DNA of 22,299 bases from an uncultured Nitrospinota bacterium (GCA_964395915.1 CAYNDB010000030.1:1-22299); one strand, 5' to 3'. Positions 3,699 through 21,914 are shown, numbered from the stretch's first letter. Made by a program: numbers and translations. The notes: a model not told the origin generated them from the letters alone.

Positions 3699-4112
3699 AT
3701 GACATTCCATACAGAATACCTGTGGTTCAACACAACCCGGAAGCGCGAATATATCAATATTACTGATAAGGTAGAAGGCATTGTCCAGGCTTCCAGTGTG
3801 AGTGAAGGAATGGTATTGGTATCGGCAATGCATATTACCGCCGGGGTATGGGTGAACGATGCGGAAGGCGGATTGCTTTCCGATATAGATAAATGGTTGG
3901 AAAATCTGGCTCCCTATGACCCAGACTACCAGCACCATCGCACAGGTGAAAATAATGGAGACGCACACCTTAAAAACCTTCTGGTTCACAACCAGGTCAT
4001 GCTCCCTATAACCGGAGGCATGCTCGACCTTGGCCCATGGCAGCAGGTTTACTACGCTGAATTTGACGGACGACGGAAAAAAAGAGCCGTTGTAAAGGTG
4101 ATGGGAGAATGA
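3699..4112 (+). CDS. yjbQ: YjbQ/UPF0047 family protein (secondary thiamine-phosphate synthase-like)
   Basis: The 137-aa protein shows YjbQ hallmarks: 'ITDKV...[25 protein letters not shown]...L..LAP....YQHH...[14 protein letters not shown]...[21 protein letters not shown]'. Its stop overlaps the gcvT ATG (ATGA). Confidence 0.8.
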
Positions 4113-5254
4113 CAGTACGCAACACGCCGCTTTATGGCATTCATAAAAAGCTGGGGGCGAAAATGGTCGATTTCCATGGCTGGCGCATGCCTGTTCAATA
4201 CAGCTCCATTCTGGAGGAACATAAAAGCGTGCGAGAGAAAGTCGGAATATTCGATGTTTCGCACATGGGCGAGATCGAGGTTAAAGGGGAACACGCCAAA
4301 GAGCTTCTTCAATGGCTTACCCCAAACGATTTGAACCAGCTTGAGGATGGGCGTGTTCAATATTCCGCCCTTATGAATGAAAATGGAGGAGTAATCGACG
4401 ATCTCTTGATATATGCGATAAGCAAAGAAAGATATTTCTTGTGCGTCAACGCTTCCAATGTAGGCAAGGATGTCAACTGGCTTGCCGACCACGCCTTGCA
4501 ATACCCTGATGTGGAGGTGGTAAACGTCTCTCGCCGATATGGAATGATATCCGTGCAGGGGCCGAACGCCGAATCGCTTTTCAGAACTTTAACCAAGCTC
4601 GATGTTACCAAGATGGAGTATTACACCTTCTCGGTAGTCATGATTGGTGAACATAATTGCATCCTTTCACGCACAGGGTATACGGGCGAAGACGGTTTTG
4701 AAATATTCTGCGAGTGGAGAGACGCTCCGCAACTGTGGGAATATATCATGGGTAAGGGAAAACATTTCGGCATCAAACCTATCGGTTTGGGAGCGAGAGA
4801 CACGTTGAGGATGGAAATGCGATACCCGTTGCACGGACAGGAGCTTGACGAAAATACAACGCCGCTGGAAGCCGGGCTTGACTGGATAGTCAAGCTGAAC
4901 AAGGAAAGTGAGTTTATCTGTATGAACGCGCTTTTAAAACAGAAAGAAAACGGGGTCGATCGTAAAATCGTTGGTTTAACAATGATGGGCAGAGGTATCC
5001 CTCGGTCGGGATACGCTGTATTTCATAACGATGAGAAAGTAGGAGAGATTACCAGCGGAACAATGAGCCCGACGTTAAAAAAGGCTATTGGAATAGGTTA
5101 TGTCCGCCCAGACCTCGCTGTTACAGGGACTACGCTTTACGTTGAAATAAGGGGCGCAAAAGTTGAGGCGGAAGTAAGCAAGACTCCTTTTGTGGAATCC
5201 CATGTAAAAAGGAGCAAGCCTGCCGAGGCGCTTCAGCAAAAAACGGTCGAATAA
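4109..5254 (+). CDS. gcvT: Glycine cleavage system T protein (aminomethyltransferase)
   Basis: N-terminus '[55 protein letters not shown]' is a canonical GcvT N-terminus. The gene sits immediately upstream of gcvH, gcvPA and gcvPB. Confidence 0.95.
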
Positions 5255-5278
5255 AATAATAATAAATGGGGAGTCAAA

Positions 5279-5656
5279 ATGGAATTTCCTGATGGGTTGC
5301 TCTACACCAAAGATCATGAATGGGTCAAAATCGAAGGGGATGTCGCTACTGTCGGAGTAACCGATTTCGCTCAAAGCGAGCTTGGAGATATAGTTTTTGT
5401 CGAATTGCCTGAAGAAGGCGGGACACTTGGCGTTAATGAAAGCTTCGGCGTCGCCGAATCCGTTAAAACCGTGTCCGATCTCTACTCCCCTTTAAGCGGC
5501 GACGTCATCGAAATCAATAAAGAGCTGGAGGCGGCTCCTGAGCTTGTAAACGAAAGCCCCTATGAAAAAGGCTGGATGATTAAGCTTAAGATAAGCGATC
5601 CAAAAGAGAGGGAAAGCTTGCTAAACGCCGCTGATTATAAAAAGCTTACAAAGTAG
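5279..5656 (+). CDS. gcvH: Glycine cleavage system H protein (lipoyl carrier)
   Basis: 'YTKDHEWVKIEGDVATVGVTDFAQSELGDIVFVELPEEG...ESVKTVSDLYSPLSGDVIEIN' includes the lipoyl-lysine motif ESVK. An RBS is present in the 24-nt gap after gcvT. Confidence 0.95.
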   Translation: MEFPDGLLYTKDHEWVKIEGDVATVGVTDFAQSELGDIVFVELPEEGGTLGVNESFGVAESVKTVSDLYSPLSGDVIEINKELEAAPELVNESPYEKGWMIKLKISDPKERESLLNAADYKKLTK

Positions 5657-5666
5657 AAGGGTCATC

Positions 5667-7016
5667 GTGCGTTTTATCCCGCTTACAGAGTCCGACAAGG
5701 TCAAGATGTTGAAAACTATAGGCGCAGGCTCTGTGGACGAACTGTTTGCCGATATCCCGGAAGACGCCGGACTTGATCGGAAGCTTAACCTGCCAGCCCC
5801 TTTGCCGGAGCCTTCGTTAATAGAATATTTCGAAAAACTCAGCGCTCAAAATAACCAAACGCCAGCGAACCAAAGCTTCCTTGGCGCGGGAGCGTACAGG
5901 CATCATGTCCCGGCCGCTGTCGACCAGCTGCTTCTTCGCGGGGAGCTTTTCACAGCGTATACGCCATATCAGCCGGAAGTAAGCCAGGGAACGCTTATGA
6001 CCACATACGAGTTCCAGACATATACCGCGGCTCTGCTGGGAATGGATATCGCCAACGCCTCTATGTACGACGGCGCGTCGTCGCTGGCGGAAGCCGTCAT
6101 TATGGCCAAAAGGGTGACGAGAAAAAACAGGGTTGTGATGTCCAGCCTCGTCCATCCTCATTGGCGTGAAGTGGCCGCCACATATACGCAAGACCTTGAC
6201 GTTGAAATTGTGGTTGTTGAATGCGCTGAAGCGGGAAAGACTTCCGCGAAAAGCCTTGTTGAAGTGGCGGGAGACGGCTTAGCCGCCATTGTCGTTCAGT
6301 ATCCCAATTTTATGGGTTGCTTGGAGGATTTAGAATCTATCCGGAAAGTGTGCGACGATACCGGAGCCCTGATGATAGTCGCCGTGGCGGAGCCTGTAGC
6401 GATGGGAATTATAGAGCCGCCGGGCCGGTTTGGGGCGGATATAGTGGTGGCCGAAGGGCGCTCTTTTGGCAATTCGGTGTCATACGGCGGGCCGGGGCTT
6501 GGCATGTTCGCCACTAAAGATAAATGGGCAAGGCAGATTCCCGGCAGGCTGGTGGGAAAAACCAACGACCTCAATGGCGAGAGGGGATATGTTTTAACGC
6601 TTGCCACGAGAGAACAGCACATAAGACGTGAGAAGGCGACATCGAACATATGCTCCAACCAGGCTCTTTGCGCCACCGCCGCGGCGATACATATAAGCCT
6701 GCTTGGCAGGACAGGTCTGCGCGAGCTTGCGGTTCGAAACCTCACCAGCGCGAAGTATCTTGCGGATAAACTGTCGTCTCTAAAGGGGTTTCAGCTTCTA
6801 TACGATCATCCGTTTTTTAACGAAGTGGCGGTGAAAACGCCATTACCGGTAGCGGCTTTAAACGAAAAATTGTCACAAAAAGGTTTTACAGGCGGGTTTG
6901 ATCTTTCGTCACATTATCCATCGCTTGAGAACGCTATGTTGTTTTGCGCCACAGAAACACATGCGAAAGAGGATATCGACAGGCTTGTTGATGCGTTGTC
7001 GGAGATTGAAAAATGA
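5667..7016 (+). CDS. gcvPA: Glycine dehydrogenase (decarboxylating) subunit 1
   Basis: The 449-aa protein matches the N-terminal P-protein subunit ('LTESDKVKMLKTIGAGSVDELFADIPE', 'YTPYQPEVSQGTLMTTYEFQT'), the split P-protein arrangement. Its stop overlaps the gcvPB start (ATGA). Confidence 0.95.
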   Translation: MRFIPLTESDKVKMLKTIGAGSVDELFADIPEDAGLDRKLNLPAPLPEPSLIEYFEKLSAQNNQTPANQSFLGAGAYRHHVPAAVDQLLLRGELFTAYTPYQPEVSQGTLMTTYEFQTYTAALLGMDIANASMYDGASSLAEAVIMAKRVTRKNRVVMSSLVHPHWREVAATYTQDLDVEIVVVECAEAGKTSAKSLVEVAGDGLAAIVVQYPNFMGCLEDLESIRKVCDDTGALMIVAVAEPVAMGIIEPPGRFGADIVVAEGRSFGNSVSYGGPGLGMFATKDKWARQIPGRLVGKTNDLNGERGYVLTLATREQHIRREKATSNICSNQALCATAAAIHISLLGRTGLRELAVRNLTSAKYLADKLSSLKGFQLLYDHPFFNEVAVKTPLPVAALNEKLSQKGFTGGFDLSSHYPSLENAMLFCATETHAKEDIDRLVDALSEIEK

Positions 7017-8497
7017 CATTACAATCGCAACGCGGCTTAATGTTCCGCGAAGATGAAATATTTGGCAGAGGTTCGCCCGGTCGGTCCGGAGTGGATATTG
7101 CCGACGGTAACTTTTCTGAAAAAGCCGACCCTGTAAAACTTCTTCCCGAAGGATTTGTGCGGGACGATCTTGAAGGGTTTCCGGAACTTTCCGAGCCGGA
7201 AGTGATACGCCACTACACAAGGCTATCGCAATGGAATTTCAGTATCGACACTAACATGTACCCGCTGGGGTCATGCACGATGAAATATAACCCAAGGGTG
7301 AACGAAGCTGTGGCGAGGATGAGCGGGTTTGCGAACATGCACCCATACCAGCCGGACTCCGAATGTCAGGGCACATTAAAACTCATACACGACCTTGGGA
7401 AATGGCTGTGCGAAATCGTAGGGATGAACGCCGCCACTCTTCAACCCGCCGCCGGAGCGCATGGAGAGTTTGCAGGGCTTCTGATGGTCCGCGCAGCGCT
7501 TGAAAAAAGAGGAGACGCAAGATCGAAAGTGATATTGCCGGACTCGTCCCACGGCACCAACCCGGCCTCGGCGGCGTTATGCGGATATAAAGCTGTCACT
7601 CTTAAAAGCAATGAGAACGGAAAAATTGATTTAAACGAACTCGACAAGCTGATGGACGATCAGGTGGCCGCGCTTATGGTCACCAACCCGAACACTCTCG
7701 GTATATTCGAATCGGACATAGTGGAGGTTGCAAGAATCGTCCACGATAGGGGGGGATTCGTATATTGCGACGGGGCGAACCTGAGCGCGTTACTAGGCAA
7801 GGCAAGGTTCGGAGATATGGGTGTGGACGTGGCGCACCTGAACCTGCACAAAACTTTTTCCACTCCGCACGGAGGAGGAGGGCCTGGCGCGGGGCCAGTG
7901 TGCGTGGTGGAGGAGCTTGCGCCTTTTTTACCGACTCCGATGGTCGTGGAGAACAACGGCGTGTACAGCATGGATTATGACAGGGCGGATTCTGTTGGCC
8001 GCATACACGGTTTCAACGGCAACGTAGGCGTCCTTCTCCGCGCGGCGGCGTATATTCTCTCCATGGGCGCTGATGGGTTGAAAGAAGCGACTGAAGCGGC
8101 GGTGATAAACGCTAACTATATTAAAGCGAGGCTTTCGAAACATTACTATGTCCCATACGAGGGGCATAACCTGCATGAATGCGTGTTGAACGACAAGCTT
8201 CAGAACGAACATGATGTGACCACGATGGATATCGCCAAGGGGTTGATAGACCGCGGTTTTCATCCTCCGACGATATATTTCCCGCTCATCGTGCGAGGCG
8301 CGCTGATGATCGAACCTACGGAAACGGAATCTAAAGAAACGCTGGACGAATTCTGCGACGCGATGATAGATATCGCCGAGAAAGCCAAGAGCGACCCTGC
8401 GTCATTGAAACAGGCTCCGATCAATACCGTCCGACGCAGGCTTGACGAAGCCACAGCCGCCCGCAACCCGGAGCTTCGGTGCAGGATCTGTTCCTGA
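7013..8497 (+). CDS. gcvPB: Glycine dehydrogenase (decarboxylating) subunit 2 (PLP-binding)
   Basis: The 494-aa protein has 'NLHKTFSTPHGGGGPGAGP', the PLP-lysine region, and 'YPLGSCTMKYNP'. It is the last gene of the gcv operon. Confidence 0.95.
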   Translation: MTLQSQRGLMFREDEIFGRGSPGRSGVDIADGNFSEKADPVKLLPEGFVRDDLEGFPELSEPEVIRHYTRLSQWNFSIDTNMYPLGSCTMKYNPRVNEAVARMSGFANMHPYQPDSECQGTLKLIHDLGKWLCEIVGMNAATLQPAAGAHGEFAGLLMVRAALEKRGDARSKVILPDSSHGTNPASAALCGYKAVTLKSNENGKIDLNELDKLMDDQVAALMVTNPNTLGIFESDIVEVARIVHDRGGFVYCDGANLSALLGKARFGDMGVDVAHLNLHKTFSTPHGGGGPGAGPVCVVEELAPFLPTPMVVENNGVYSMDYDRADSVGRIHGFNGNVGVLLRAAAYILSMGADGLKEATEAAVINANYIKARLSKHYYVPYEGHNLHECVLNDKLQNEHDVTTMDIAKGLIDRGFHPPTIYFPLIVRGALMIEPTETESKETLDEFCDAMIDIAEKAKSDPASLKQAPINTVRRRLDEATAARNPELRCRICS

Positions 8498-8962: not shown

Positions 8963-9038
8963 GGCCCCATCGTCTAGTGGCCTAGGACGCTGCCCTCTCA
9001 CGGCGGAAACAGGGGTTCGACTCCCCTTGGGGCTACCA
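8963..9038 (+). tRNA. tRNA-Glu (anticodon CUC), CCA encoded
   Basis: Hand-folded cloverleaf: acceptor GGCCCCA/TGGGGCT, D-stem GTCT/GGAC, anticodon stem CTGCC/GGCGG with loop CTCTCAC (anticodon CTC), 4-nt variable loop, T-arm AGGGG-TTCGACT-CCCCT, discriminator A and CCA. Overall architecture is nearly identical to E. coli tRNA-Glu. Confidence 0.9.
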
Positions 9039-9346: not shown

Positions 9347-10420
9347 ATGATTTTTAATCGCCGAACACTTGAAGGTAAAATTATGATTGTCGATGACAAT
9401 CAGATAAATGTTTCTCTGCTTGAAAAGCTTTTAAGAACGGCGGATTTCACTTCTATCAAAAGCACGACTGACCCACGTGAAGCAAAAAATATATACAGGG
9501 ACTTCCAACCTGACATTTTACTGTTGGATCTTGACATGCCGCATCTGGACGGGTTTCAGGTGATGGAACAACTAAAAGAGATCGAGCGGGAAGCTTTTCT
9601 CCCGGTACTGGTTATAACAGGACGGAACGATAACGCAACATGCGTTCGCGCTCTTGAAGCCGGAGCGCTGGACTTTATTGTCAAACCTTTTGAGCCGGTG
9701 GAGGCTATCAACCGTATCCGCAATATGCTCCAGGTCCGGCTGATGCATAAACAGGTTCGCGATCAGAATCGATTATTAGAAGACAAAGTCCGCGAGCGGA
9801 CAAAAGAACTTCATGAAACGCGACTGGATGTGATCCATCATCTTGGTCGGGCGGCTGAGTATCGTGATAACGAGACGGGAATGCACATTATCCGCATGGG
9901 AAAGGCGGCCTATCTTCTGGGAAAAGCTATGCGCTGGGATGACGATCAATGCGAGCTTTTGCTTCAAGCCAGCCCGATGCATGACATAGGCAAGATAGGC
10001 ATACCCGACAAAATTCTTCTAAAACCTGGCAAGCTCGCCCATGAAGAGTGGGAAATAATGAAAACGCACACCACGATAGGCGCGGAACTACTCTCGGGCC
10101 ATTCTTCAGATCTGATGGTAATGGCGCGAAGCATCGCCTTGACCCATCATGAAAAATGGGACGGCTCGGGCTATCCAAACGGGCTTAAAGGTGAAGATAT
10201 TCCCATGGAAGGGAGAATCTGCGCGATCAGCGATGTGTTTGACGCTCTTACATCTGACCGTCCATATAAAAAAGCTTGGAGCATTGAAGACGCAATTGCG
10301 GAAGTCTATCGTGGCGCAGGCAAGCATTTTGATCCTAACCTTATTGCTCAATTCAAGATAATCCTGCCGGAAATTCTTGCTATTAAAGAACAGTTTGCGG
10401 ACATACCTGTTAGCAAATAA
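9347..10420 (+). CDS. Response regulator with REC receiver and HD-GYP (c-di-GMP phosphodiesterase) domains
   Basis: The N-terminal REC has 'IMIVDDNQ...[12 protein letters not shown]...LVITG'. The C-terminal HD-GYP has '[13 protein letters not shown]' and '[14 protein letters not shown]'. The true start may be the internal Met at about 9383. No histidine kinase is adjacent. Confidence 0.85.
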
Positions 10421-10626
10421 TATTCGCGTCCATTCATCATTATCTTGACACCGGAATATGCGATATTTTCCACGCCTCTGTTTTTGCCTGATCCAATATC
10501 TGGCGCATGGCTCCACAAATATCATCGGGCGCAATTGGTCTAAAAAATAATACTTTTATCCCGGGTTCACTTTCATCCTTTCGCTCCTGCCAAGAAGGCG
10601 CGAGTCCAGATAATGATGTTCATTGC

Positions 10627-10638
10627 CTGTTGCAACAG
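10627..10638. promoter_or_regulatory. 12-bp perfect palindrome CTGTTGCAACAG in the 547-bp non-coding region upstream of ccp
   Basis: Read directly from the sequence. It is a candidate operator for a dimeric regulator of the ccp-sensor kinase operon. Confidence 0.3.
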
Positions 10639-10967
10639 CTAAAAACCTCATGAGGCGCTAGGCAATATGTCCCTAAACACTGTATACTTAGGGTGTTGGA
10701 AGAATATGTTAATACTGCGGGCGGACTAAAAGCTTAAACTACGCATGGTTCATTGCAGAATTATTAACACGAGGAGCCGAAAATCTAAAGAAGCCGAAAC
10801 TGTATCTTATAATCAGGTCTTTAATGCGCCGTTCCGGCCGACGACCTGCAATCCACCATATCTTGCTATCCAAAGATGGGATGTTAACAGTTTGGAGCAG
10901 GGATTAAATAGGGGCTGTTATTAGAACCTTTTATAAAAAGGCTTAATATGAAGATCGTGTCGAGGTC

Positions 10968-11999
10968 TTGTCTCCAATGAAAAAATGGTTGGTGTTATTT
11001 GTGATAGCTATTCTTGTAGCTATCGCAATCTCATGGGTGACCTGTCTGGAACCACCCGTAAAAAGCAAAACGACATATCTTGTAAAAAACAGAGGAAATC
11101 CTGCGACGGGAGGAGAGCCTATATCCCCAATCCCTCTCAACATTGATCTCGATTCAAGAAAAGTGGCTCTTGGAAAGCTTCTGTTCCATGACCCACGTCT
11201 GTCACGAGATGACAGCATATCGTGCGCCCACTGTCATGATCTGGCCAATGGAGGAATGGACGGTTTGCCAAGGTCTATCGGTGTGGATGGGCGTGAGGGA
11301 GTTATAAACGCTCCAACGGTATTTAACAGCGGACTGAACTTCAAGCAGTTTTGGGATGGGAGAGCGAACACGCTGGAAGAACAGATCGACGGCCCAATAT
11401 CCAACAAAAACGAGATGGACTCGTCATGGGACGAGATAATCGGGAAGCTTACTCGAGACGATGAGTTAAAAGCCTTGTTCCGCGCCTCATACAAAGATGG
11501 GATTACAACCGATAACATAAAAAACGCTATCGCCACTTTTGAGCGCTCCCTTATCACACCGAACGCCCCTTTCGACCGGTTTCTGCGTGGTGAGAAGGGC
11601 ACGATAACAGACCAGGCGAAACAGGGCTATATACTTTTCAAACAATACGGTTGCATTGCGTGTCACCAGGGAATGAATATAGGTGGCAATATGTTCCATA
11701 CTTTAGACGTCATGGATGATCATTTTAAAGACAAGAAAAAGATGACAATCGCCGACCTGGGACGTTTTAACGTCACAGGCGATGAAGATGACAAGTATGT
11801 ATTCCGTGTCCCAAGTTTGCGGAATGTGGCCATCACGTCGCCATACTTTCATGACAGCCATGCGGAATCCCTCGAAAAGGCAGTGGAGGAAATGGCCAAG
11901 GATCAGCTCATGAGAAATATTCCCAAGGAGCATATACAGCTCATCGTTAAATTTCTTGAATCACTTACAGGTGAATATGAAGGTGAGCCTCTAAAATGA
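10968..11999 (+). CDS. ccp: Di-haem cytochrome c peroxidase (CCP/MauG family), membrane-anchored or secreted
   Basis: Two haem sites, CAHCH and CIACHQG. CCP signatures 'QFWDGRA', 'PFDRFL' and 'PSLRNVAITSPYFHDS'. N-terminal hydrophobic anchor/signal 'KKWLVLFVIAILVAIAISWV'. The stop overlaps the ATG of the downstream kinase. Confidence 0.88.
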   Translation: MSPMKKWLVLFVIAILVAIAISWVTCLEPPVKSKTTYLVKNRGNPATGGEPISPIPLNIDLDSRKVALGKLLFHDPRLSRDDSISCAHCHDLANGGMDGLPRSIGVDGREGVINAPTVFNSGLNFKQFWDGRANTLEEQIDGPISNKNEMDSSWDEIIGKLTRDDELKALFRASYKDGITTDNIKNAIATFERSLITPNAPFDRFLRGEKGTITDQAKQGYILFKQYGCIACHQGMNIGGNMFHTLDVMDDHFKDKKKMTIADLGRFNVTGDEDDKYVFRVPSLRNVAITSPYFHDSHAESLEKAVEEMAKDQLMRNIPKEHIQLIVKFLESLTGEYEGEPLK

Positions 12000-14900
12000 T
12001 AAACCTGAGATTCAAGCAGATTGCCATAGCGGTATTACTGGTGGCCCTGCTGACTTTAATGTATATAAAAACCAAATCCATGGATTTTGAAAAGCATAGC
12101 GCCATCACAAACAATCTCCTGCTTTTTGAACAGGTGGACGCTACCTTGAACCAGAACATCCTTATGGCCCGCTTTAGCCTGTTAAACAACTATGACCCTA
12201 TCATCCGTGATATTAGCAGGATAAAAAAGATCACAAGCGAATTGCGGAAGGACCTTCATTCCACGCCTTTCCTTGATGATACGGATACCCTGGCGGTGTT
12301 TACGGCATTGTCCAAAGCTATAGAAGATAAAGAACGATGGATTGAAAAGTTCAAGTCGAAAAACGCAATTCTCGAAAATTCACTCCGCTATTTCCCCGTG
12401 GCTGTGAGCGGGTTACAAAAGGCTTTGGTAAAAGGCTCTAAAGATTCCGATAAATTGAGAAACATTATTAACGCTCTGTTGGGCGAGTCGGCGAGTATTT
12501 CTTTTGAATCAGGAACTGAGTTCAAAAGAAATTTTAAAAACCTGCTCGATTTGCTGAGCGATTACAAGGAAAAGCTTGAAGGGGAAGTTAAAACGTGGGT
12601 GGATGTGGTGTTGCAACATGGTCGTATAATGGCTGAAGGTGTAGAAGAGGTAGGAGAGCTACTCAACGCCGTTATGTCCGCTCCCACAACTGAAAGTAGC
12701 GAGACATTGCGCAACGTTTACTCGCTCGCTTACGAAAAGGAGCTTCGTCTGGCGAATTTCTATCGTCTTGCCCTTTTTCTTATTTCCGTACTCCTCCTGT
12801 TTTTTATTATACGGATATTGATACAACTACGGAAAAGCATGGTCAGCCTGAACCAACAAAAATTCGCCATGGACCAGCACTCCATAGTCAGCGTGTCTGA
12901 TATGAACTGGAAAATAACATATGCGAACGACAAACTGGTGGAGGTGTCACAATTTTCTCTGGAAGAACTACTTGGGCAGGATCAGAGGAAAATCGACGCG
13001 GGAGAACGTAATCACGAAATTTTCTCGGAAGTCGAAAAAATTGTTTCCACTGGAAAGGTCTGGAAGGGAGAGATAATAAGCCGGAAAAAAGACGGTTCGC
13101 CCTATTGGGTGGAAACCACTATATCTCCATTTACCGACGAGAGCGGAACTCCCTATCAGTACGTGACCATACGCACAAACATAACTGAGCGGAAACTGGC
13201 CGAACAGAATCTGGCCGAAAGGGTAAATCATGCGGAATTCAACGCAAATGTAGGGGCCGCCCTGACAGAAGGTGGGCCGTTACGGGAAATTCTGCAAAAA
13301 TGCGTTGAGTTGTCGGTAAAGCATCTAGACGTTTCGTTCGCCCGTATCTGGATCTTTAATCAACAAGAGGAGATGCTGGAGTTGCAAGCGAGCGCGGGGA
13401 TGTACACTCACATCGACGGCCCCCACAGCAGGGTTCCGCTTGGGAAATTAAAGATCGGGCTGATAGCGCAAAAGCGAAAGCCGCATTTGACCAACACCGT
13501 TATAGGTGATCCGCGTGTTAACGATCAGGATTGGGCGAGGAAGGAAGGAATGACGGCTTTTGCGGGATATCCACTTATCGTTGAAAACAGGTTAGCTGGC
13601 GTGATGGCCATGTTTTCCAAGGAGGTCATCACTGAGGCTACCTTTGACACGCTTGGGTCGGTGGCGGATGAAATTGCCCTTGGTATCGAACGCAAGCGAG
13701 CGGAAAAGGAGCTCGCCCGCCTCGCCAAAGCGGTGGAACACGCGGCAGAAACGATACTCATAACTGATGTGGAAGGAGTAATCAATTATGTAAATCCCGC
13801 GTTTGAACGGATCACCGGATACAGCAGGGATGAAGCTATCGGCAAAAACCCGAGCTTTCTTAAAAGCGGCGTACATGACAATAGTTTTTATAAAAATATG
13901 TGGGGGACCATCACAAAAGGTCAGGTGTGGTCTGGCAGGGTAACAAACCGTAGAAAGAGCGGCGAGCAGTATAAAGAGGAGAGCACTATCTCGCCTATCA
14001 CTGACCACTCTGGAGCGGTAGTGGGCTACGTGGCTGTAAAAAAAGATGTGACCGAGGAGTTGAAAATGGAGCGGCAGGCCCAGCAATCGCAGAAGATGGA
14101 AGCCATCGGGACATTGGCTGGTGGCATAGCGCATGATTTTAACAACATACTCACAGCTATCATAGGTTATGCCGAGATGACCGCGGAAGGTTTTCCCGCA
14201 AATAGCGAAACGCGGGAAAATCTGAATGAAATCCTCCATGCCGGGAACAGGGCAAAAGAGCTTGTAAAACAGATACTGGCTTTCAGCAGGCAAAATGACA
14301 AGACGCTAAAACCGCTTTATCCACATCTTATCGTGAAAGAATCGCTTCGGCTTCTCCGGGCGACTGTGCCTTCGACCATCGAGATAATAGAAGACACAGA
14401 TAAATCTTCCGGCGCGATTCTCGCCGACGCCACGCAGCTAAGCCAGGTGATTATGAACCTTTGCACAAACGCCGAATACGTTATGCGTAAAACAGGGGGT
14501 GTTCTTACGATCAGTTTAAAGCCAGTTAAAGTGAACGCAAAATTAGCTTCCGCCCATAATGGTTTGCAAGAGGGTTCGTATGTCCGGCTGACGGTTGGCG
14601 ACACGGGAAGCGGTATGGACAGAAAAACTTTGGAGCGAATATTCGAGCCTTTCTTTACGACCAAATCGCAGGGTGAAGGGACAGGGATGGGCTTATCGGC
14701 GGTGCATGGCATTGTCGCAAGCTATGGCGGCGCAATTGTTGTTGAAAGCAAAATTGGCCAGGGAACCATATTCCACGTTTATTTGCCACAAATTAAAAAA
14801 GACGTAAGCCTGGGAGATGAAACCATTTTAGATGTTGAAAGAGGCGAAGAAAGCGTTTTATTTGTGGATGATGAGCAGAGTATCGCCTTATTAGGCAAAA

Positions 14901-15208
14901 AAATCCTTGAGCGATTAGGCTACAAGGTTGTTTCCAGCACGAGCGCTCAGGAAGCTTTGGATATATTTCTCAAGGCTCCTGAAAAGTTCGACATAGTTAT
15001 AACAGATCAAACGATGCCCGAAATGACAGGTTTTGATCTCGCTGGAGAAATAATGCGCATCAGCCCTGACATGCCAATTATTTTATGCACCGGTTATAGT
15101 CACACAATAGATGAGGAACAAGCCAGAAGTATAGGCATTAAAGAATATGTTATGAAGCCAATTAAAACGCATGAACTGGCAAAGGTAATACGCAGAGTTT
15201 TGAATTAG
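11996..15208 (+). CDS. Hybrid sensor histidine kinase: TM, ~225-aa periplasmic helical sensor domain, TM, PAS, GAF, PAS, HisKA, HATPase and C-terminal REC
   Basis: TM1 is at about aa 9-25 and TM2 at about aa 250-270 ('LALFLISVLLLFFIIRILI'). PAS motifs are 'NWKITYANDKL...GSPYWVETTISPF' and 'INYVNPAFERITGYSRDEAIG...VWSGRV'. The GAF region is 'LREILQKCVELSVKHLDVSFARIWIF'. The H-box is 'GGIAHDFNNILTAIIGYAEM', with G-boxes 'GDTGSGMD' and 'GTGMGLS'. The receiver is 'VLFVDDEQSIA...ITDQTMPEMTGFDL...ILCTGY'. Confidence 0.9.
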   Translation: MINLRFKQIAIAVLLVALLTLMYIKTKSMDFEKHSAITNNLLLFEQVDATLNQNILMARFSLLNNYDPIIRDISRIKKITSELRKDLHSTPFLDDTDTLAVFTALSKAIEDKERWIEKFKSKNAILENSLRYFPVAVSGLQKALVKGSKDSDKLRNIINALLGESASISFESGTEFKRNFKNLLDLLSDYKEKLEGEVKTWVDVVLQHGRIMAEGVEEVGELLNAVMSAPTTESSETLRNVYSLAYEKELRLANFYRLALFLISVLLLFFIIRILIQLRKSMVSLNQQKFAMDQHSIVSVSDMNWKITYANDKLVEVSQFSLEELLGQDQRKIDAGERNHEIFSEVEKIVSTGKVWKGEIISRKKDGSPYWVETTISPFTDESGTPYQYVTIRTNITERKLAEQNLAERVNHAEFNANVGAALTEGGPLREILQKCVELSVKHLDVSFARIWIFNQQEEMLELQASAGMYTHIDGPHSRVPLGKLKIGLIAQKRKPHLTNTVIGDPRVNDQDWARKEGMTAFAGYPLIVENRLAGVMAMFSKEVITEATFDTLGSVADEIALGIERKRAEKELARLAKAVEHAAETILITDVEGVINYVNPAFERITGYSRDEAIGKNPSFLKSGVHDNSFYKNMWGTITKGQVWSGRVTNRRKSGEQYKEESTISPITDHSGAVVGYVAVKKDVTEELKMERQAQQSQKMEAIGTLAGGIAHDFNNILTAIIGYAEMTAEGFPANSETRENLNEILHAGNRAKELVKQILAFSRQNDKTLKPLYPHLIVKESLRLLRATVPSTIEIIEDTDKSSGAILADATQLSQVIMNLCTNAEYVMRKTGGVLTISLKPVKVNAKLASAHNGLQEGSYVRLTVGDTGSGMDRKTLERIFEPFFTTKSQGEGTGMGLSAVHGIVASYGGAIVVESKIGQGTIFHVYLPQIKKDVSLGDETILDVERGEESVLFVDDEQSIALLGKKILERLGYKVVSSTSAQEALDIFLKAPEKFDIVITDQTMPEMTGFDLAGEIMRISPDMPIILCTGYSHTIDEEQARSIGIKEYVMKPIKTHELAKVIRRVLN

Positions 15209-15265: not shown

Positions 15266-16513
15266 TTACACGTTAGATGAACGGCCCCCTTTAGAGCCGA
15301 TGGTTTCTTCCGGGTAGGCGTCGATATTATGGATGGAAAGATCGGAACCCTCAATTTCCTGCTCTTTAGTCAGGCGCAATCCAATGGTAATGTCGATAAG
15401 CGTATACACGCAATAACCGGCGACAAGCGCAACCATAACCCCCGCTCCGGTTCCTATTAGCTGCGAGAGAAGTGTAACGTCGCCCATTCCACCAAGCTGT
15501 TTGAGCCCAAAGATACCGCAAGCGACGCCGCCCCACGCTCCGCATATTCCATGCAGTGGCCAGACACCGAGCACATCGTCTATTTTGAGTTTCTCCTGCT
15601 CAAATATAAACCCTTTGACAAAAATTATTCCGGCGACACCGCCGACAATCAACGCGCCCAGCGGATGATATTGATCCGATCCAGCGCAGACAGCCACCAG
15701 CCCCGCTAACGCTCCGTTATGGACAAACCCGGGATCGTTTTTGGAGATAACCAGCGCGGCGATGATCCCACCCACCATAGACATCAGAGAATTTACAGCA
15801 ACAAGCCCCGTGATACCGGTGATCTGTTGCGCGCTCATTACGTTAAACCCGAACCAGCCGATGCAGAGCATCCATGTGCCCAGCGCCAGCATTGGTATGT
15901 TGCTTACCGGTATCGGCCTGGATACGCCATCGACCCAGCGGCCATTGCGCGCTCCCAACTTAATGACAGCCACAAGGGCAAGCCATCCTCCCATGGCGTG
16001 GACAACCACCGATCCTGCGAAATCATGAAAGGGAGCCCCTCCGATTCTTTCAAGCAAAGACCCTTCCTGGCCGAGCAATGTGAGCCTGCCCCAGACCATT
16101 CCCTCGAAAATGGGATAGACAATAGCGACGAATATCATCGAGGCCAAAACCTGGGGCCAAAACCTGGATCGTTCCGCAATTCCGCCAGAGATGATAGCTG
16201 GAATGGCGGCGGCAAAAGTTAAAAGAAAGAAAAATCGGGCAAGGTCGTAGCCTCGTAAAGAGCCGACGATCTCTTCGGCGGAGCCGAAAAATGTCAAACC
16301 ATACGCAAGAGGAAAACCTATGAAAAAATAGATAACCGCCGAGAATGCGAAATCGGACAAAATCTTCACGAGAGCGTTAACCTGATTCTTCTTTCGTACA
16401 GTGCCAACCTCCAGAAAGGCGAAGCCTCCGTGCATTGCAAAAACCATCACCGCTCCCAACATCAGGAACAAAACATCCGCGCTGTTTTTAAGTTCGCCTA
16501 TTTCCGCCATCAT
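15266..16513 (-). CDS. amtB: Ammonium transporter (Amt/AmtB family), no cleavable signal peptide
   Basis: The 415-aa polytopic protein has Amt hallmarks ('FLMLGAVMVFAMHGGFAFLEVG', 'DFAGSVVVHAMGGWLALVAVIKLGAR', 'GVWPLHGICGAWGGVA'). It sits 59 nt downstream of glnK, the classical glnK-amtB pair. Confidence 0.92.
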   Translation of the reverse strand: MMAEIGELKNSADVLFLMLGAVMVFAMHGGFAFLEVGTVRKKNQVNALVKILSDFAFSAVIYFFIGFPLAYGLTFFGSAEEIVGSLRGYDLARFFFLLTFAAAIPAIISGGIAERSRFWPQVLASMIFVAIVYPIFEGMVWGRLTLLGQEGSLLERIGGAPFHDFAGSVVVHAMGGWLALVAVIKLGARNGRWVDGVSRPIPVSNIPMLALGTWMLCIGWFGFNVMSAQQITGITGLVAVNSLMSMVGGIIAALVISKNDPGFVHNGALAGLVAVCAGSDQYHPLGALIVGGVAGIIFVKGFIFEQEKLKIDDVLGVWPLHGICGAWGGVACGIFGLKQLGGMGDVTLLSQLIGTGAGVMVALVAGYCVYTLIDITIGLRLTKEQEIEGSDLSIHNIDAYPEETIGSKGGRSSNV

Positions 16514-16572
16514 GTACCTTTAACGCATGAATTGTTTATAAACTCGTTTCTTCAAAATCGAACAGGATCGAT

Positions 16573-16983
<411 letters not shown>

Positions 16984-17007: not shown

Positions 17008-18768
17008 TTAATTCATTTTCTTCGATTCTGAGCCGATGCCCATTCCCTTCGTCAGGTTGCTGTCTCCCAATATGGCGAACGCTCCTTCAAGGCTGCCCCC
17101 GCCAGAGCCGCTTTGGACCTGAACGCGCGGCGTTTTTACGATGTCAGGATTTTTGACCGCCGCCCGAAGAAGCTTGTCGATAACGGCAAGCTGCATCGTC
17201 TTGTCCTTGCCAAGCACGGCCACCTGGGCGCTCTGCCCTTTGGCGATCTCCTGTAGCTTCAGCTTTTCACCCTGCCCTTCAAACTGCTTGGCCGCCATAC
17301 GGTGTTTCGCCGACTTCTCTTCGATTTTAGCTTCCATCAGCGAATGCTGCTGATTGGCTTCCGCAATCGCCTTTTCAACTTCGATACGCTTTTTCTGGGC
17401 CGCTTCTTCCTCTATAAAGGTTTGCTGCATCTGCTTGGCCAGTTGTTCGCGTTTACGCGCCACCAGAAGCTCTGGCGGAATAACAGGATCGCCAAACCGC
17501 ACATCTCTGACGATCAAGCCAAATTTGGCCCCCTGCGCTTTAAGCGCCGCCAACACCTTATCCTCCAGATAAGCGCGTTTATTGCGCAAATCGAGAACAC
17601 GGGTTCCCTTAGCGGCTTTTGCGGCTTCTCCACGAGCCTGGTACTCGGCGTTGATAATATTTTTCACAACACTGCGGACAAGCGGCGTAAAGATTTTCTC
17701 TTCGAGCTGTTCGAGGTTGCCAATGGCGGCGAAAATAACCGGCGCGTTCTTTGGATCAACCTGCACGAGGGCCCGCATTTCTATAGGGACCTCCCATCCA
17801 TCAACCTTGAGTATTATTGCGCTGTCAGCGGCGTTTGCCGGGATGGATACTCCTTCCGATTTAATTTTCTGATCGATCTGCCCGTCCCGCTTGACGGTAA
17901 GATCTATCCACCGTTTCGTATACCCGCCAACGTAACCCAAAGTCTGAACTCGCGAGGGTATGGGGATGATTTTGTATGCGCTCTCGCTCATGTAATAAAC
18001 ACCCGGAGCCAGAACCTTGCTCCAGACGCCGCGGCAGCCCTTTGGAACAAGCCGGACAGAAAAGGAAACACCTTTCTGCAGTGGCACAGGTTCGCACTTG
18101 GCGCCGACCGGTGATGGAGCCATTGACTTGACTACGCCCACATATCCCGGCGGCACCTTCCGCGCCGGTTTGTTTTGTATCGAAAAAAGATAGGGGTTAT
18201 AGCGATATTTGCCCGGCTTCAACACCGTGGACTGAGGGCCTTTCTGCCCCTTGCCTTCACCCAGAAAGTATTCCGCTTTCAGCATATCGTTTTCCGAGCC
18301 CGCTTTCCATCTGTCGGCGAAATTCTGCCCGTCCCGTAACGGAAGACCGTCTTTGGCGGTAATCATTCCATAGCTGCCCAAGGAGACTTCATGCACAGGA
18401 AAGGATTCCACATCGTACAACACGTTCAGCAGAGGCTTGAAATTAAGTCCAGGCCCCAATATTTCGGCCTGCGGGCCGGTCTCACCATTAACTGCGATTA
18501 TCCGTCCGCTCTCCAGGCTTTTAAAGCCATACACCTTGCTGAGCGAACCTATTTTATCGGAGTCGATAACGACATACGACGTGTTGACGGCAAGAAGCAA
18601 GGCCACAAAAGCCAGGGCGCCACGCAAAGGCATGCGCATCCACCCAAGCGGTATTTCTTCTCCGGCGCGGGTCACATGCTTGTCACTTATCTTGAAATAA
18701 TCGGGTATCATGCCTGGCAAAAATATAGCTGCGCCAGCGCATACGACCACTAAAAACAAAGCGTCCAT
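17008..18768 (-). CDS. Flotillin-like SPFH/band-7 family membrane protein (YqiK-like) with N-terminal TM segments and a C-terminal coiled-coil
   Basis: Two N-terminal hydrophobic segments. The SPFH core is 'IPIEMRALVQVDPKNAPVIFAAIG...FTPLVRSVVKNIINAEYQARGE...LIVRDVRFGDPVIPPELL', followed by an E/A/K/Q-rich coiled-coil. The start is 11 nt downstream of the octahaem cytochrome stop. Confidence 0.75.
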   Translation of the reverse strand: MDALFLVVVCAGAAIFLPGMIPDYFKISDKHVTRAGEEIPLGWMRMPLRGALAFVALLLAVNTSYVVIDSDKIGSLSKVYGFKSLESGRIIAVNGETGPQAEILGPGLNFKPLLNVLYDVESFPVHEVSLGSYGMITAKDGLPLRDGQNFADRWKAGSENDMLKAEYFLGEGKGQKGPQSTVLKPGKYRYNPYLFSIQNKPARKVPPGYVGVVKSMAPSPVGAKCEPVPLQKGVSFSVRLVPKGCRGVWSKVLAPGVYYMSESAYKIIPIPSRVQTLGYVGGYTKRWIDLTVKRDGQIDQKIKSEGVSIPANAADSAIILKVDGWEVPIEMRALVQVDPKNAPVIFAAIGNLEQLEEKIFTPLVRSVVKNIINAEYQARGEAAKAAKGTRVLDLRNKRAYLEDKVLAALKAQGAKFGLIVRDVRFGDPVIPPELLVARKREQLAKQMQQTFIEEEAAQKKRIEVEKAIAEANQQHSLMEAKIEEKSAKHRMAAKQFEGQGEKLKLQEIAKGQSAQVAVLGKDKTMQLAVIDKLLRAAVKNPDIVKTPRVQVQSGSGGGSLEGAFAILGDSNLTKGMGIGSESKKMN

Positions 18769-18779
18769 TACTATTCTCC

Positions 18780-20024
18780 CTAATGTTTTTCTTTATGTTC
18801 ACGCAGCTCATCTATCATGCGGATAAGTTCAAGCTTGTTACGCGCGAGTTCGTAGAAACCATGCCATTGCGCATAATCAGCGCCCATCATAAAGACTCCA
18901 TGACGCGCCCTGCGGCCTTCATGGTGCCAATATTCAAAGAACTTGAACTCCAGCTCCTCGTCAAACTTCTCCTTTGTCAGAAGACCGTCCTCGTAAAGCT
19001 TGTCCATCTTCTCTTTTATCGGGTCGTAGAACTTTTCGTTGTATAGCTTCACAGCGTCGTCCGCCTGTTTGTAAAAACCTTTCACCCAGTTAATCGAGTG
19101 ACAGTTCAGGCAGACCTCCTGCATCTCTTTACGGTTTTCTTCCCAGTTCTCGCGCGGGACGCTTCTCGGGCTGGAAAGTTTCCATGAAAGACGCAAGTTT
19201 ATATTGTGCGTCGCCTTGACCTTGCCGATGCCCGACATATGACAAGTGGCGCAGGTGGGAGCGCGATAATATTGGACATCCCAGTTGCTGCCGGCCACGT
19301 CCCAGTCCCATTCCTCCTTTTCACTTTGATAAATAACTCCATGCTTCGATTCGAGATAAATCTCGATCTGCGGATGATCCGGGCCGATGTGGCAGGTGCC
19401 GCATGTCTCCGGTTTACGCGCTTCGCCGATTGAAAATTTGTGACGTGTATGACAGGCGGTGCAAGACCCCTTGCTTCCGTCCGGGTTCACTCTTCCGATC
19501 CCCTGGTTTGGCCAGGAGCCGAACTTGAGCGTCCCGCCTGGCCCCATTTCCACTGTCGAGCCGTGACATTTTTCACACCCGACTATCGCCGCCTCTTTTC
19601 CTTCAATTGTGTAGCCGAGAACATTGTCCATAACTCGGCCTTCCGGCGTTTCTTTGCTTATGAAAGTGGCCGCCTTCGCGTGGTGGCTTTCCTCGAATTC
19701 GCGCACTTCCTGTGGATGACAGCGAGAGCAATCGCGCGGGCTTACAATGACGGAAATAAGCGCCCCCTCATGTTCCTGCGCGTCGACATCGGTTCTTTCG
19801 GCCTTGTGGCAGTCAAAACATGTCACACCGCCGCGCGCGTGTTGGCTCTTTTTCCAGTCATTAACGATACCGGGGGATTTTTTTTCATGACATGTCATGC
19901 ACCGTTCGGCGATTGCTTCCTCCTTGGCGCGGACAGAGCTTTTATCGGCAAAAGCAGTTTGGGCGAACCCTATTCCCAATGCAACAAGCATCACGCTAAA
20001 AAACACTTTTTTCTTCATTAACAA
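18780..20024 (-). CDS. Periplasmic octahaem c-type cytochrome, HAO/ONR-family-like (candidate nitrite/hydroxylamine oxidoreductase)
   Basis: Sec signal 'MLMKKKVFFSVMLVALGIGFAQTAFA'. Eight CXXCH motifs (CMTCH, CFDCH, CSRCH, CEKCH, CTACH, CGTCH, CATCH, CLNCH) sit in about 390 mature residues, with the closely spaced haem 5/6 pair and helical C-terminal tail seen in hydroxylamine-oxidoreductase-type octahaem proteins. It is too haem-dense and too short to be pentahaem NrfA. An AGGAG RBS precedes it. Confidence 0.7.
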   Translation of the reverse strand: MLMKKKVFFSVMLVALGIGFAQTAFADKSSVRAKEEAIAERCMTCHEKKSPGIVNDWKKSQHARGGVTCFDCHKAERTDVDAQEHEGALISVIVSPRDCSRCHPQEVREFEESHHAKAATFISKETPEGRVMDNVLGYTIEGKEAAIVGCEKCHGSTVEMGPGGTLKFGSWPNQGIGRVNPDGSKGSCTACHTRHKFSIGEARKPETCGTCHIGPDHPQIEIYLESKHGVIYQSEKEEWDWDVAGSNWDVQYYRAPTCATCHMSGIGKVKATHNINLRLSWKLSSPRSVPRENWEENRKEMQEVCLNCHSINWVKGFYKQADDAVKLYNEKFYDPIKEKMDKLYEDGLLTKEKFDEELEFKFFEYWHHEGRRARHGVFMMGADYAQWHGFYELARNKLELIRMIDELREHKEKH

Positions 20025-20057
20025 CGCTCCTTTATCTTAATTTCCAGCCAATACCGA

Positions 20058-20597
20058 TCAGCCGAAATACATTTTGTTTTTATGTACTATATTTCTGTGG
20101 CAATGTACGCACTTGCCTTTATCTCCCTCAAAACCTTTTGAGTGGGCCAAAAAGCCTCCACGCGGAAGCCCTGAAGGGAACGGGTTCTTGTGACACTTTA
20201 TGCACGAATCGTTCGTCATACTGTGACGGGACATTTCGGCCATTTCTTTTCTGTCCAGGTTTTCCGGATCGCCGAGATAGTGAACATAGGTATCGCGTAC
20301 GCCAAATATTGTCTTCGCTTTGAGCTTGGCCAAAAAACCGGTCGGCAAATGGCAATCGGAACATTCGGCTACGACACCTGTATTGTTGTCGTAGTGAGAC
20401 GATACTCTCCACTCACGAAACATTTCCTCCATCTCGTGGCAGTTGACCGTGCAAAAATCAACCGACGAGGTGAAATCAACCGACCAGGTAAGGACTAAGT
20501 AAAAGCCGCCAATAGCAAATGCCGTAAGAGCCGAAGTGATGGCGACTACTTTTGGATTAGCCTTTTTGAGGATTTTTTCGCCAGTTATTCTTACCAT
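20058..20597 (-). CDS. nrfH: NapC/NirT/NrfH-family membrane-anchored tetrahaem cytochrome c (quinol dehydrogenase)
   Basis: N-terminal TM anchor 'VVAITSALTAFAIGGFYLVL'. Four CXXCH motifs (CTVNCHEM with the NrfH-type CXXCHXM first haem; CSDCH, CIKCH, CVHCH). The start is 9 nt after the amt stop. Confidence 0.85.
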   Translation of the reverse strand: MVRITGEKILKKANPKVVAITSALTAFAIGGFYLVLTWSVDFTSSVDFCTVNCHEMEEMFREWRVSSHYDNNTGVVAECSDCHLPTGFLAKLKAKTIFGVRDTYVHYLGDPENLDRKEMAEMSRHSMTNDSCIKCHKNPFPSGLPRGGFLAHSKGFEGDKGKCVHCHRNIVHKNKMYFG

Positions 20598-20606
20598 AAT
20601 CCGCTC

Positions 20607-21914
20607 TTACCTGAAGGAGCCCAGCGAAGAATCTGGATAGGAGTTGGCTCCGTGCTCGCTAAAGTCGAGCCCATTATATTCGTCTTCAGCGGAGACCCTG
20701 AGACCGCTAAACCTGTCTATTGCCTTGAGCAGGACAAACGTTGTGGGAAAAACCCAGAGAAAACACGCCGCTATACCGATTAGCTGGACACCGATAATTT
20801 TCAGCGAAAACATTTCGGCGCTGTTGAAAAGCCCCACAGCCAGTGTTCCCCATGCTCCACAAACACCATGCACCGAAATGGCGCCGACAGGATCATCCAC
20901 TTTAAAGCGTTCGATTATCGGCACGAAAACCACCACAAGGACTCCCGCAACGGCGCCGGTTATGATCGCAAATAGTGGCGAGAGGCTGGCGCACCCTGCG
21001 GCAATGCCGACAAGGCCGGCCATCGCCCCGTTGAGACTTGTTCCCACGTCTGGCAGACCATACCGCATCCATGCCACTACCATTGCGACAACCGTTCCCG
21101 CCACTGCCGCAAGAGTGGTGTTTATGACAATCAACGCTATGTCGCCATCGCCGACCATCGCGTTTCCGGTATTGAAACCGTACCAGCCAAACCATAGAAT
21201 CATCACGCCAATGGCGGCGAGAGGAAGGTTGTGCCCCGGCAGCGCTTTTATGACGCCATCCTTGCCAAACTTGTCGTTGCGCGGGCCAATGGCGATCGCT
21301 CCCGCAAGAGCCGCCCATCCGCCGACACTGTGAACAACTGTGGAGCCGGCAAAATCAATGAAACCGAGGCTCTCAAGCCACCCGTTTCCATGATACATAC
21401 TTCCCCAGGCCCAGCTTCCGAAGACCGGATAAATAATCGCGGCGAGAGCGGCGGTATAGATAAGATGTGCGATAAACCGTGTTCTTTCCGCCATTGCGCC
21501 TGAAATAATAAGGGCGACAATTGAGCAGAACAGAAGCTGGAGCATCCAGAAAGAGTAGTGTTGATAGTCGCCATCATGGGCAAAGCCTGTGAGAAAAAAG
21601 CCATCAGAGCCAAACAGGCCGGAGCTGGATTCTCCGAACATCAGGCCAAAACCTATCGCCCAATACGCAAACGCCCCGATAGAAAACCCGATGATGGTTT
21701 TCATTATGACGTTCGACGCGTTTTTAGCCCGTGTAAGACCCGACTCCATCAACGTGAACCCCGCCAGCATGATAAAAACAAGACAGGCGGCGATGATCGT
21801 CCATATTGAATTCAGATGGTTCTGGACATCCAACGCATCTGGTATTTCCGCCGCAAACGCATTTTCAGCTATCGCCAAAAACGCAATACAAAATATAATT
21901 ATTCCGTTTTTCAT
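20607..21914 (-). CDS. amt: Ammonium transporter (Amt family) with a cleavable N-terminal signal peptide
   Basis: The 435-aa protein has the signal 'MKNGIIIFCIAFLAIAENAFAAE', then Amt core motifs ('DFAGSTVVHSVGGWAALAGAIAIGPR', 'SVHGVCGAWGTLAVGLF'). It is the first gene of the minus-strand cluster. Confidence 0.9.
   Translation of the reverse strand: MKNGIIIFCIAFLAIAENAFAAEIPDALDVQNHLNSIWTIIAACLVFIMLAGFTLMESGLTRAKNASNVIMKTIIGFSIGAFAYWAIGFGLMFGESSSGLFGSDGFFLTGFAHDGDYQHYSFWMLQLLFCSIVALIISGAMAERTRFIAHLIYTAALAAIIYPVFGSWAWGSMYHGNGWLESLGFIDFAGSTVVHSVGGWAALAGAIAIGPRNDKFGKDGVIKALPGHNLPLAAIGVMILWFGWYGFNTGNAMVGDGDIALIVINTTLAAVAGTVVAMVVAWMRYGLPDVGTSLNGAMAGLVGIAAGCASLSPLFAIITGAVAGVLVVVFVPIIERFKVDDPVGAISVHGVCGAWGTLAVGLFNSAEMFSLKIIGVQLIGIAACFLWVFPTTFVLLKAIDRFSGLRVSAEDEYNGLDFSEHGANSYPDSSLGSFR

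Follow-up and report, generated by a model that had tools for sequence, protein, structure and literature searches.

A di-haem cytochrome c peroxidase as a candidate co-sensor for a DAHL-domain hybrid histidine kinase in an uncultured Nitrospinota bacterium

Why should the gene of a di-haem cytochrome c peroxidase run directly into that of a sensor histidine kinase? The two genes lie in a 22,299-nucleotide stretch of DNA from an uncultured Nitrospinota bacterium (GCA_964395915.1, CAYNDB010000030.1:1-22299), which was analysed as a whole and is called the window here. The peroxidase gene (10977..11999; 340 aa) and the hybrid kinase gene (11996..15208; 1,070 aa) are both on the + strand, as are all features below unless stated, and share the tetranucleotide ATGA at 11996..11999, where the TGA stop of the first (11997-11999) overlaps the ATG start of the second (11996-11998). 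From this coupling, the original prediction, made from the sequence alone, proposed that the peroxidase acts as a periplasmic co-sensor for the kinase. The overlap is present, but a single one carries no significance by itself since 4-base start/stop overlaps are common in operons generally. Comparative genomics nevertheless lends the proposal support, through the conservation of the gene pair and the variety of its outputs. We consider that the peroxidase probably serves, beyond any detoxifying role, as co-sensor for the helical periplasmic DAHL domain of the kinase, which here probably signals to an upstream REC-HD-GYP regulator, and give this reading a probability of roughly 0.55.

The original prediction would have fallen had the pair been absent from related genomes, and conservation was strong in both search directions. 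A scan seeded with the window peroxidase, taking one genome per species, returned 80 loci whose peroxidases are 49-61% identical to it. These loci come from Rokubacteria, Verrucomicrobia, Poribacteria, Cyanobacteria, Acidobacteria, Planctomycetes, Omnitrophota, Nitrospinota, Binatia, Bdellovibrionota, Elusimicrobiota and others, and include Beta-, Alpha-, Gamma- and Zetaproteobacteria. With the window DAHL segment alone as query, 78 of the 80 proved to have a DAHL open reading frame (ORF) immediately downstream in the same orientation; a DAHL profile added one further locus and a truncated copy, giving 79 of 80 with a partner. Every full-length partner protein (70/70) matches the Pfam family DAHL (PF19443). 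A metagenome scan seeded with a 12-sequence DAHL alignment also returned 80 loci, and in 73 of the 76 that include upstream sequence a peroxidase gene lies directly upstream. The 4-base overlap is kept in 59 of 78 genome pairs and 59 of 72 metagenome pairs (118/150), and in the other pairs a few to 38 bases separate the genes; this conservation exceeds chance. Because the pairing is spread across phyla and both search directions agree, chance or mere operon drift is unlikely to account for it. Clustering of neighbouring genes found no third gene conserved across the loci, such as one for a small cytochrome donor.

The outputs to which the DAHL domain is joined vary. The 70 partners comprise 61 with HATPase_c, four with SpoIIE/PP2C, two with MCPsignal, one with GGDEF and EAL and one with a nucleotide cyclase. 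Thirteen of the HATPase_c partners carry REC and seven carry Hpt, and many partners are minimal DAHL-HisKA-HATPase kinases in which DAHL is the sole sensor domain. Since the peroxidase stays with DAHL while the outputs are exchanged, the two appear to share a sensory input, which argues for the peroxidase behaving as part of the input module and not as a gene regulated by its neighbour. The association is also selective. E. coli ccp (yhjA) is a solitary gene flanked by gadA and treF and lacks a DAHL neighbour. In a further control of 12 annotated plasmid or chromid loci, a DAHL gene lies directly downstream of five di-haem members (Vitreoscilla filiformis, Gloeocapsa PCC 7428, Rhizobium etli, Agrobacterium fabrum and Pseudoalteromonas), and in two of these the partner carries the RefSeq label 'DAHL domain-containing protein'. 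No DAHL neighbour was found for the four tri-haem YhjA-like enzymes of this set (Lawsonia, Paraburkholderia, Methylotuvimicrobium and Vibrio campbellii) or for its three canonical enzymes with SIGH or SIGD-W (R. gallicum, Cupriavidus and Azospirillum).

Some loci depart from the simple two-gene layout. One has two DAHL genes around a single peroxidase gene, one upstream and one downstream (L002, 2-3260), and another has two tandem DAHL genes with a single peroxidase gene (L038, 7894-11764), so one peroxidase may serve more than one transducer. In an Elusimicrobiota metagenome-assembled genome (L040, 5819-8778), a tri-haem YhjA-like peroxidase (PF14376 and CCP_MauG, three CxxCH motifs) has a 4-base overlap with a minimal DAHL-HisKA-HATPase kinase; this locus bridges the quinol-peroxidase type and the DAHL-linked type. 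Two ENA gene calls with both Pfam matches (P0138 and P0147) resembled DAHL-CCP gene fusions. They were rejected as assembly or gene-call chimeras, showing abrupt jumps and frameshifted Arg-rich tails, and are not counted as Rosetta-stone evidence.

The DAHL family takes its name from Tlp10 (DocB, Cj0019c), a chemoreceptor of Campylobacter jejuni whose gene, docB, directly follows that of a cytochrome c peroxidase, docA (Cj0020c). The C. jejuni peroxidases contribute nothing to peroxide resistance, and docA and docB mutants are both poor colonisers of chicks. A functional link between the two has been suspected. A paper of July 2026 reports an overlap and translational coupling of cj0020c with cj0019c, and there a DocA-Tlp10 interaction is speculated only. 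In both C. jejuni and the window, the peroxidase gene is upstream of, and overlaps, the gene of a DAHL transmembrane receptor; the output is a chemoreceptor in DocB and a PAS-GAF-PAS hybrid histidine kinase in the window. Our literature search found no experiment on the pair and no account of a pan-bacterial DAHL-peroxidase pair, the 2026 speculation being the only related statement; papers on Leptospira and Geobacter peroxidases proved to have no bearing on it.

The two proteins could instead be co-expressed and independent, an ordinary detoxifying or respiratory peroxidase sharing an operon with a self-sufficient DAHL sensor of small molecules. We regard this as unlikely. It agrees with the retention of every catalytic residue in the peroxidase, with the frequency of 4-base overlaps noted above, with the nature of the closest solved relative, YhjA, a genuine respiratory or detoxifying peroxidase, and with reports that the Tlp10 DAHL detects several ligand classes. 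However, it leaves the near-obligate adjacency across phyla unexplained, as well as its persistence with chemoreceptor, phosphatase and cyclase outputs, which are unable to regulate transcription of the peroxidase. Independence also sits poorly with the absence of linkage for tri-haem and canonical peroxidases among the annotated controls, and with docA, whose mutants have the same colonisation phenotype as those of docB although the gene confers no protection against peroxide.

What, then, does the peroxidase look like as a sensor subunit? Its assignment as a di-haem cytochrome c peroxidase was borne out by a match to CCP_MauG (PF03150; E 1.4e-58; 198 bits against a Pfam cut-off of 25.6) and by two CxxCH motifs. 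The first, CAHCH (C83-H87; 11223..11237), belongs to the peroxidatic (P) haem and the second, CIACH (C226-H230; 11652..11666), to the electron-transfer (E) haem. Both motifs, the inter-haem Trp (W126), the catalytic Gln and Glu (Q136 and E146) and M306 align with their counterparts in the canonical bacterial cytochrome c peroxidase (bCCP) structure 1iqc and are invariant in 50 homologues. Met306 (11892..11894) aligns with the Met of 'AVETMGRIQL' in 1iqc, the axial ligand of the bCCP E haem. At the distal-His loop, the canonical enzymes that were compared (Nitrosomonas, Shewanella, Paracoccus and Pseudomonas; 1iqc, 3o5c, 2c1u and 1eb7) have S-[IV]-G-H, with the His as distal ligand of the P haem. 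This His is replaced by Val103 (11283..11285) in the window peroxidase, which thus departs from the canonical S-x-G-H, and YhjA also has Val. The position is occupied by I, V, S, F, L, M or N across all 142 DAHL-linked peroxidases and by His in none of them (0/142).

The closest solved structure is that of E. coli YhjA (PDB 9qdt; 51% identity), ahead of the canonical bCCPs (38-42%) and MauG (24-27%). YhjA has a P haem with OH-/His ligation, needs no reductive activation and retains an uncleaved signal peptide as a membrane anchor (PMC10301912). The window peroxidase resembles it in lacking the distal His of the P haem, in keeping the catalytic residues and in having an N-terminal hydrophobic helix. 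The two differ in that YhjA has a third, N-terminal haem domain, uses a quinol donor and is monocistronic, whereas the window peroxidase has two haems and a DAHL neighbour; a Pfam scan found no third haem domain (Haem_bd, PF14376) in the window peroxidase and only the two CxxCH motifs. In a paper presenting a superfamily network, YhjA falls among the canonical enzymes, and sensors go unmentioned. The N-terminal helix of the window peroxidase (aa 4-22; 10986..11042) has a mean Kyte-Doolittle hydropathy of 3.1 over 17 aa and is modelled by AlphaFold2 (AF2) as a helix at 2-23. The nearest relatives also have a long, very hydrophobic N-terminal helix without AxA or an obvious cleavage site, and the more distant linked peroxidases of alpha- and gammaproteobacteria and Binatia have an N-terminus that looks cleavable. 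The helix of the window peroxidase is probably an uncleaved signal anchor. Close to the second haem motif is a cluster of residues (Q231, N238 and the F250/R253 insertion) that the linked group conserves and that differ both in YhjA and in the Nitrosomonas enzyme; this region is a candidate surface for interaction.

The kinase proved to have the architecture described in the original prediction, with transmembrane (TM) helices TM1 (about aa 8-26) and TM2 (about aa 258-281), cytoplasmic PAS domain 1 (PAS_4; aa 300-400; 12893..13195), a GAF domain (GAF_2/GAF; aa 429-565; 13280..13690), PAS domain 2 (PAS/PAS_9; aa 575-687; 13718..14056), a kinase core of HisKA (aa 705-767) and HATPase_c (aa 811-932; together 14108..14791) and a C-terminal receiver (REC; aa 954-1065; 14855..15190; Response_reg E 1.7e-22). 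The PAS-GAF-PAS region would add further cytoplasmic inputs. The periplasmic segment between the two TM helices is indeed all-helical, at about 230 aa, but it had been thought to have no obvious family, and the domain search returned one: residues 30-257 (12083..12766) match Pfam DAHL with an E-value of 1.8e-47 (162 bits against a cut-off of 38). The AF2 model of this region is wholly helical at high confidence (predicted local distance difference test score, pLDDT, 91.6), has the bimodular all-helical DAHL fold and places helices 2-28 and 231-289 on either side of the domain. Across 151 non-identical DAHL domains, D67 is conserved in 100%, N128 and S129 in 99%, H208 in 98%, K120 in 97%, F119 and A124 in 95% and E117 in 94%, with no conserved Trp. 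The window segment has no Cys and therefore no thiol switch of its own. An HMMER scan of 1.84 billion cluster representatives with the single DAHL sequence gave 1,551 relatives at E <= 1e-3, and DAHL is N-terminal in all 150 of the matches listed. A word-indexed protein search with the window domain alone gave nothing at E <= 1e-5, and with a 55-sequence DAHL profile the yield of the same search was limited to 51 ENA gene calls, which are fragmentary. Among PDB sequences, a profile search detected no DAHL domain of solved structure.

A likely output of the unit is encoded nearby. On the same strand, 556 bases upstream of the peroxidase gene, lies the gene of a response regulator with REC (aa 12-124) and an HD-GYP-type domain (HD_5; aa 180-332; 9347..10420, Pfam). 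Orthologues with 41-46% identity flank peroxidase-DAHL hybrid kinase pairs in Gallionella (L014, 581-6340), in Mariprofundus (L034, 6842-12578) and on a metagenome contig (L098, 2877-8198). Two of these loci are from iron oxidisers, which hints at a three-gene unit in that group. Because the regulator is close by and its orthologues flank three other pairs, hydrolysis of cyclic di-GMP (c-di-GMP) is the likely output, and the regulator is probably a c-di-GMP phosphodiesterase that belongs to the unit as the cognate output of the kinase.

Taken together, these features suggest how the two gene products could form one sensory unit. The N-terminal helix of the peroxidase would hold it at the inner membrane, and in the periplasm the peroxidase would lie beside the double four-helix-bundle DAHL domain of the kinase, in presumed contact with it, as the signal-receiving subunit. 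Since its P haem probably has no protein distal ligand, it would react with H2O2 without reductive activation, as YhjA does, and the invariance of the catalytic Gln and Glu points to H2O2 as the natural signal. The E haem, with its His/Met ligation, would draw electrons from a periplasmic donor, so that the redox state and conformation of the peroxidase would be determined by oxidation by peroxide on the one hand and re-reduction by the donor on the other. As electron supply to the His/Met haem would also shape this state, what the unit reports may be the balance of oxidant and reductant. The signal read by DAHL would be the state of the peroxidase, relayed via TM2 to the PAS-GAF-PAS-kinase core, and in the last step the upstream REC-HD-GYP regulator would hydrolyse c-di-GMP. 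A bolder version of the contact between the two proteins, which we think quite improbable, is that polar residues of DAHL (His208, Asp67, Lys120 and Asn128-Ser129) reach into the peroxidase, where they would supply the lost distal haem ligand or become covalently oxidised; peroxide that binds or is turned over at the haem would thereby act directly on a receptor residue, displacing or modifying it, and so drive the TM helix.

The same complex could respond to another signal, reported by the open five- or six-coordinate haem or by the E haem. Candidates are the redox poise of the cytochrome c or quinol pool in the periplasm, which would amount to energy or redox sensing, or nitric oxide, nitrite, hydroxylamine or another diatomic or nitrogen-oxide ligand. 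A P haem without a protein distal ligand can bind small ligands, the E haem keeps its His/Met ligation next to the clade-specific surface (Q231, N238, F250/R253), and C. jejuni gains no protection from peroxide through its peroxidases. The window also holds genes for an octahaem HAO-like and an NrfH-like cytochrome, two amt genes and glnB, and the upstream regulator resembles a NosR-family regulator linked to nitric oxide, at a score far under the cut-off (151 against 400 bits). However, the invariant catalytic Gln and Glu are a signature of peroxide chemistry, and the nearby nitrogen-cycle genes lie on the other strand and are not conserved at other loci; we hold a signal other than peroxide to be rather unlikely. 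The weakest alternative, and in our view very unlikely, is maturation of the partner in the manner of the MauG-preMADH and MbnH-MbnP pairs, with an H2O2-driven modification of a DAHL residue (e.g. His208, Lys120 or Asp67) that creates a sensing cofactor or metal site: those enzymes belong to the same superfamily (PF03150) and modify dedicated adjacent partner proteins, the gene coupling here is strictly one-to-one and a few DAHL polar residues are nearly invariant (D67, N128/S129, H208 and K120), but the window peroxidase is far below the MauG/MbnH equivalog cut-offs (TIGR03791, 167 against 444; TIGR04039, 160 against 363), is closer to peroxidases (38-51% identity) than to MauG, and has Met306 aligned with the bCCP Met where MauG has Tyr294 as axial ligand of its six-coordinate haem (the MauG alignments end before that region), and DAHL has no conserved Trp.

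Several observations weigh against the peroxidase being a co-sensor. All of the support comes from gene context and sequence, and the loci are related by descent, so the pair counts are not independent events. Three DAHL loci (L106, L136 and L151) lack a peroxidase within 5 kb as well as any c-type haem protein in the vicinity, and one peroxidase locus (L008) has no DAHL partner within 7 kb; the missing partners may be encoded elsewhere or lost. For the Tlp10 DAHL, sensing of several small molecules, malate among them, has been reported, and DAHL may therefore sense without the peroxidase. The window peroxidase is itself off the clade consensus at positions 164, 198, 214, 253, 254 and 312, which are 89-98% conserved in other DAHL-linked members (e.g. 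G312 to M and E214 to A). Sequencing error is an unlikely source of these departures because a 93%-identical homologue exists. The AF2 model of the peroxidase is of moderate confidence only (pLDDT 77) around the E-haem region. Finally, the hybrid kinase has no Hpt domain and none was found among the window ORFs that were scanned, which makes the route to the HD-GYP regulator obscure.

The proposed unit has parallels among known systems. In TorT-TorS, LuxP-LuxQ and XylFII-LytS, as in the arrangement proposed here, a kinase senses through a periplasmic accessory protein; TorT, LuxP and XylFII are periplasmic binding proteins for small molecules, whereas the accessory protein in the window is a redox enzyme. 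The DAHL domain matches the fold of TorS, but at 7-8% identity there is no sequence similarity. In H-NOX-HnoK and NosP-NahK, a haem protein encoded separately in the operon controls a histidine kinase or a cyclic di-GMP enzyme. H-NOX and NosP are cytoplasmic, gas-binding proteins with a single b-type haem, unlike the periplasmic c-type di-haem peroxidase of the window. The yeast mitochondrial cytochrome c peroxidase Ccp1 is reported to behave as an H2O2 sensor or as an enzyme depending on the supply of reducing substrate (PMC5369544); it differs in having an unrelated fold and a single b-type haem and in being eukaryotic.

Such a pair is not confined to the window, and a co-sensor has already been suggested in the case of C. 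jejuni. Four points appear to be undescribed in the literature searched: how general the pairing is, the loss of the distal His specific to this clade, the relationship to YhjA and the variety of outputs. The sensing of peroxide or redox state in the periplasm, as distinct from cytoplasmic sensing by OxyR or PerR, is poorly understood. If the pair is one receptor, it would represent a large unrecognised input module, with about 1,550 DAHL cluster representatives in many phyla, carried by cyanobacteria, rhizobia, iron oxidisers and the pathogen C. jejuni among others. It would explain why DocA matters for chick colonisation without giving peroxide protection, what an otherwise orphan DAHL domain needs for signalling and why one clade of di-haem peroxidases has lost its regulatory distal His. 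Direct contact between haem and DAHL, should it occur, would define a widespread class of periplasmic peroxide or redox receptors that feed kinases, chemoreceptors, PP2C phosphatases and nucleotide cyclases.

The remaining features of the window concern the limits and the surroundings of the locus. The peroxidase ORF has an in-frame TTG at 10968 and an ATG at 10977, and the 340-aa product from the ATG begins MKKWLVLFVIAILVAIAISW. ATG 10977 is the likely start, since an independent gene call on an identical short contig and the 93%-identical homologue, also of 340 aa, agree on it. The 556-base interval between the regulator and peroxidase genes (10421-10976) has no Rfam match and only weak promoter-like sites. 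Promoter and terminator scans were uninformative, the former giving 12 promoter-like sites against 7.5 +/- 2.8 expected, none of them convincing. Rfam and tRNA scans of the window gave a single match, a tRNA-Glu (anticodon CTC; 8963-9038, +) between the REC-HD-GYP gene and a glycine-cleavage operon (gcvT-H-PA-PB; 4109-8497). Downstream of the kinase, on the - strand at 18780-20597, the octahaem HAO-family cytochrome (414 aa, eight CxxCH motifs, Multi-haem_cyto match) adjoins the NrfH/NapC-type cytochrome (179 aa). The former has a weak hydrazine-dehydrogenase-like match (98 bits against a cut-off of 900). The two cytochrome genes are bracketed by the ammonium transporter (amt) genes and the P-II gene (glnB), with 15266-16974 and 20607-21914 as the flanking intervals, and the pair looks like a reductive HAO-type nitrogen-oxide module amid ammonium-sensing genes. 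Between the P-II gene and the HAO-like gene, at 17008-18768 on the - strand, is a gene for a 586-aa protein with a weak SPFH/Band 7 match (E 7e-9).

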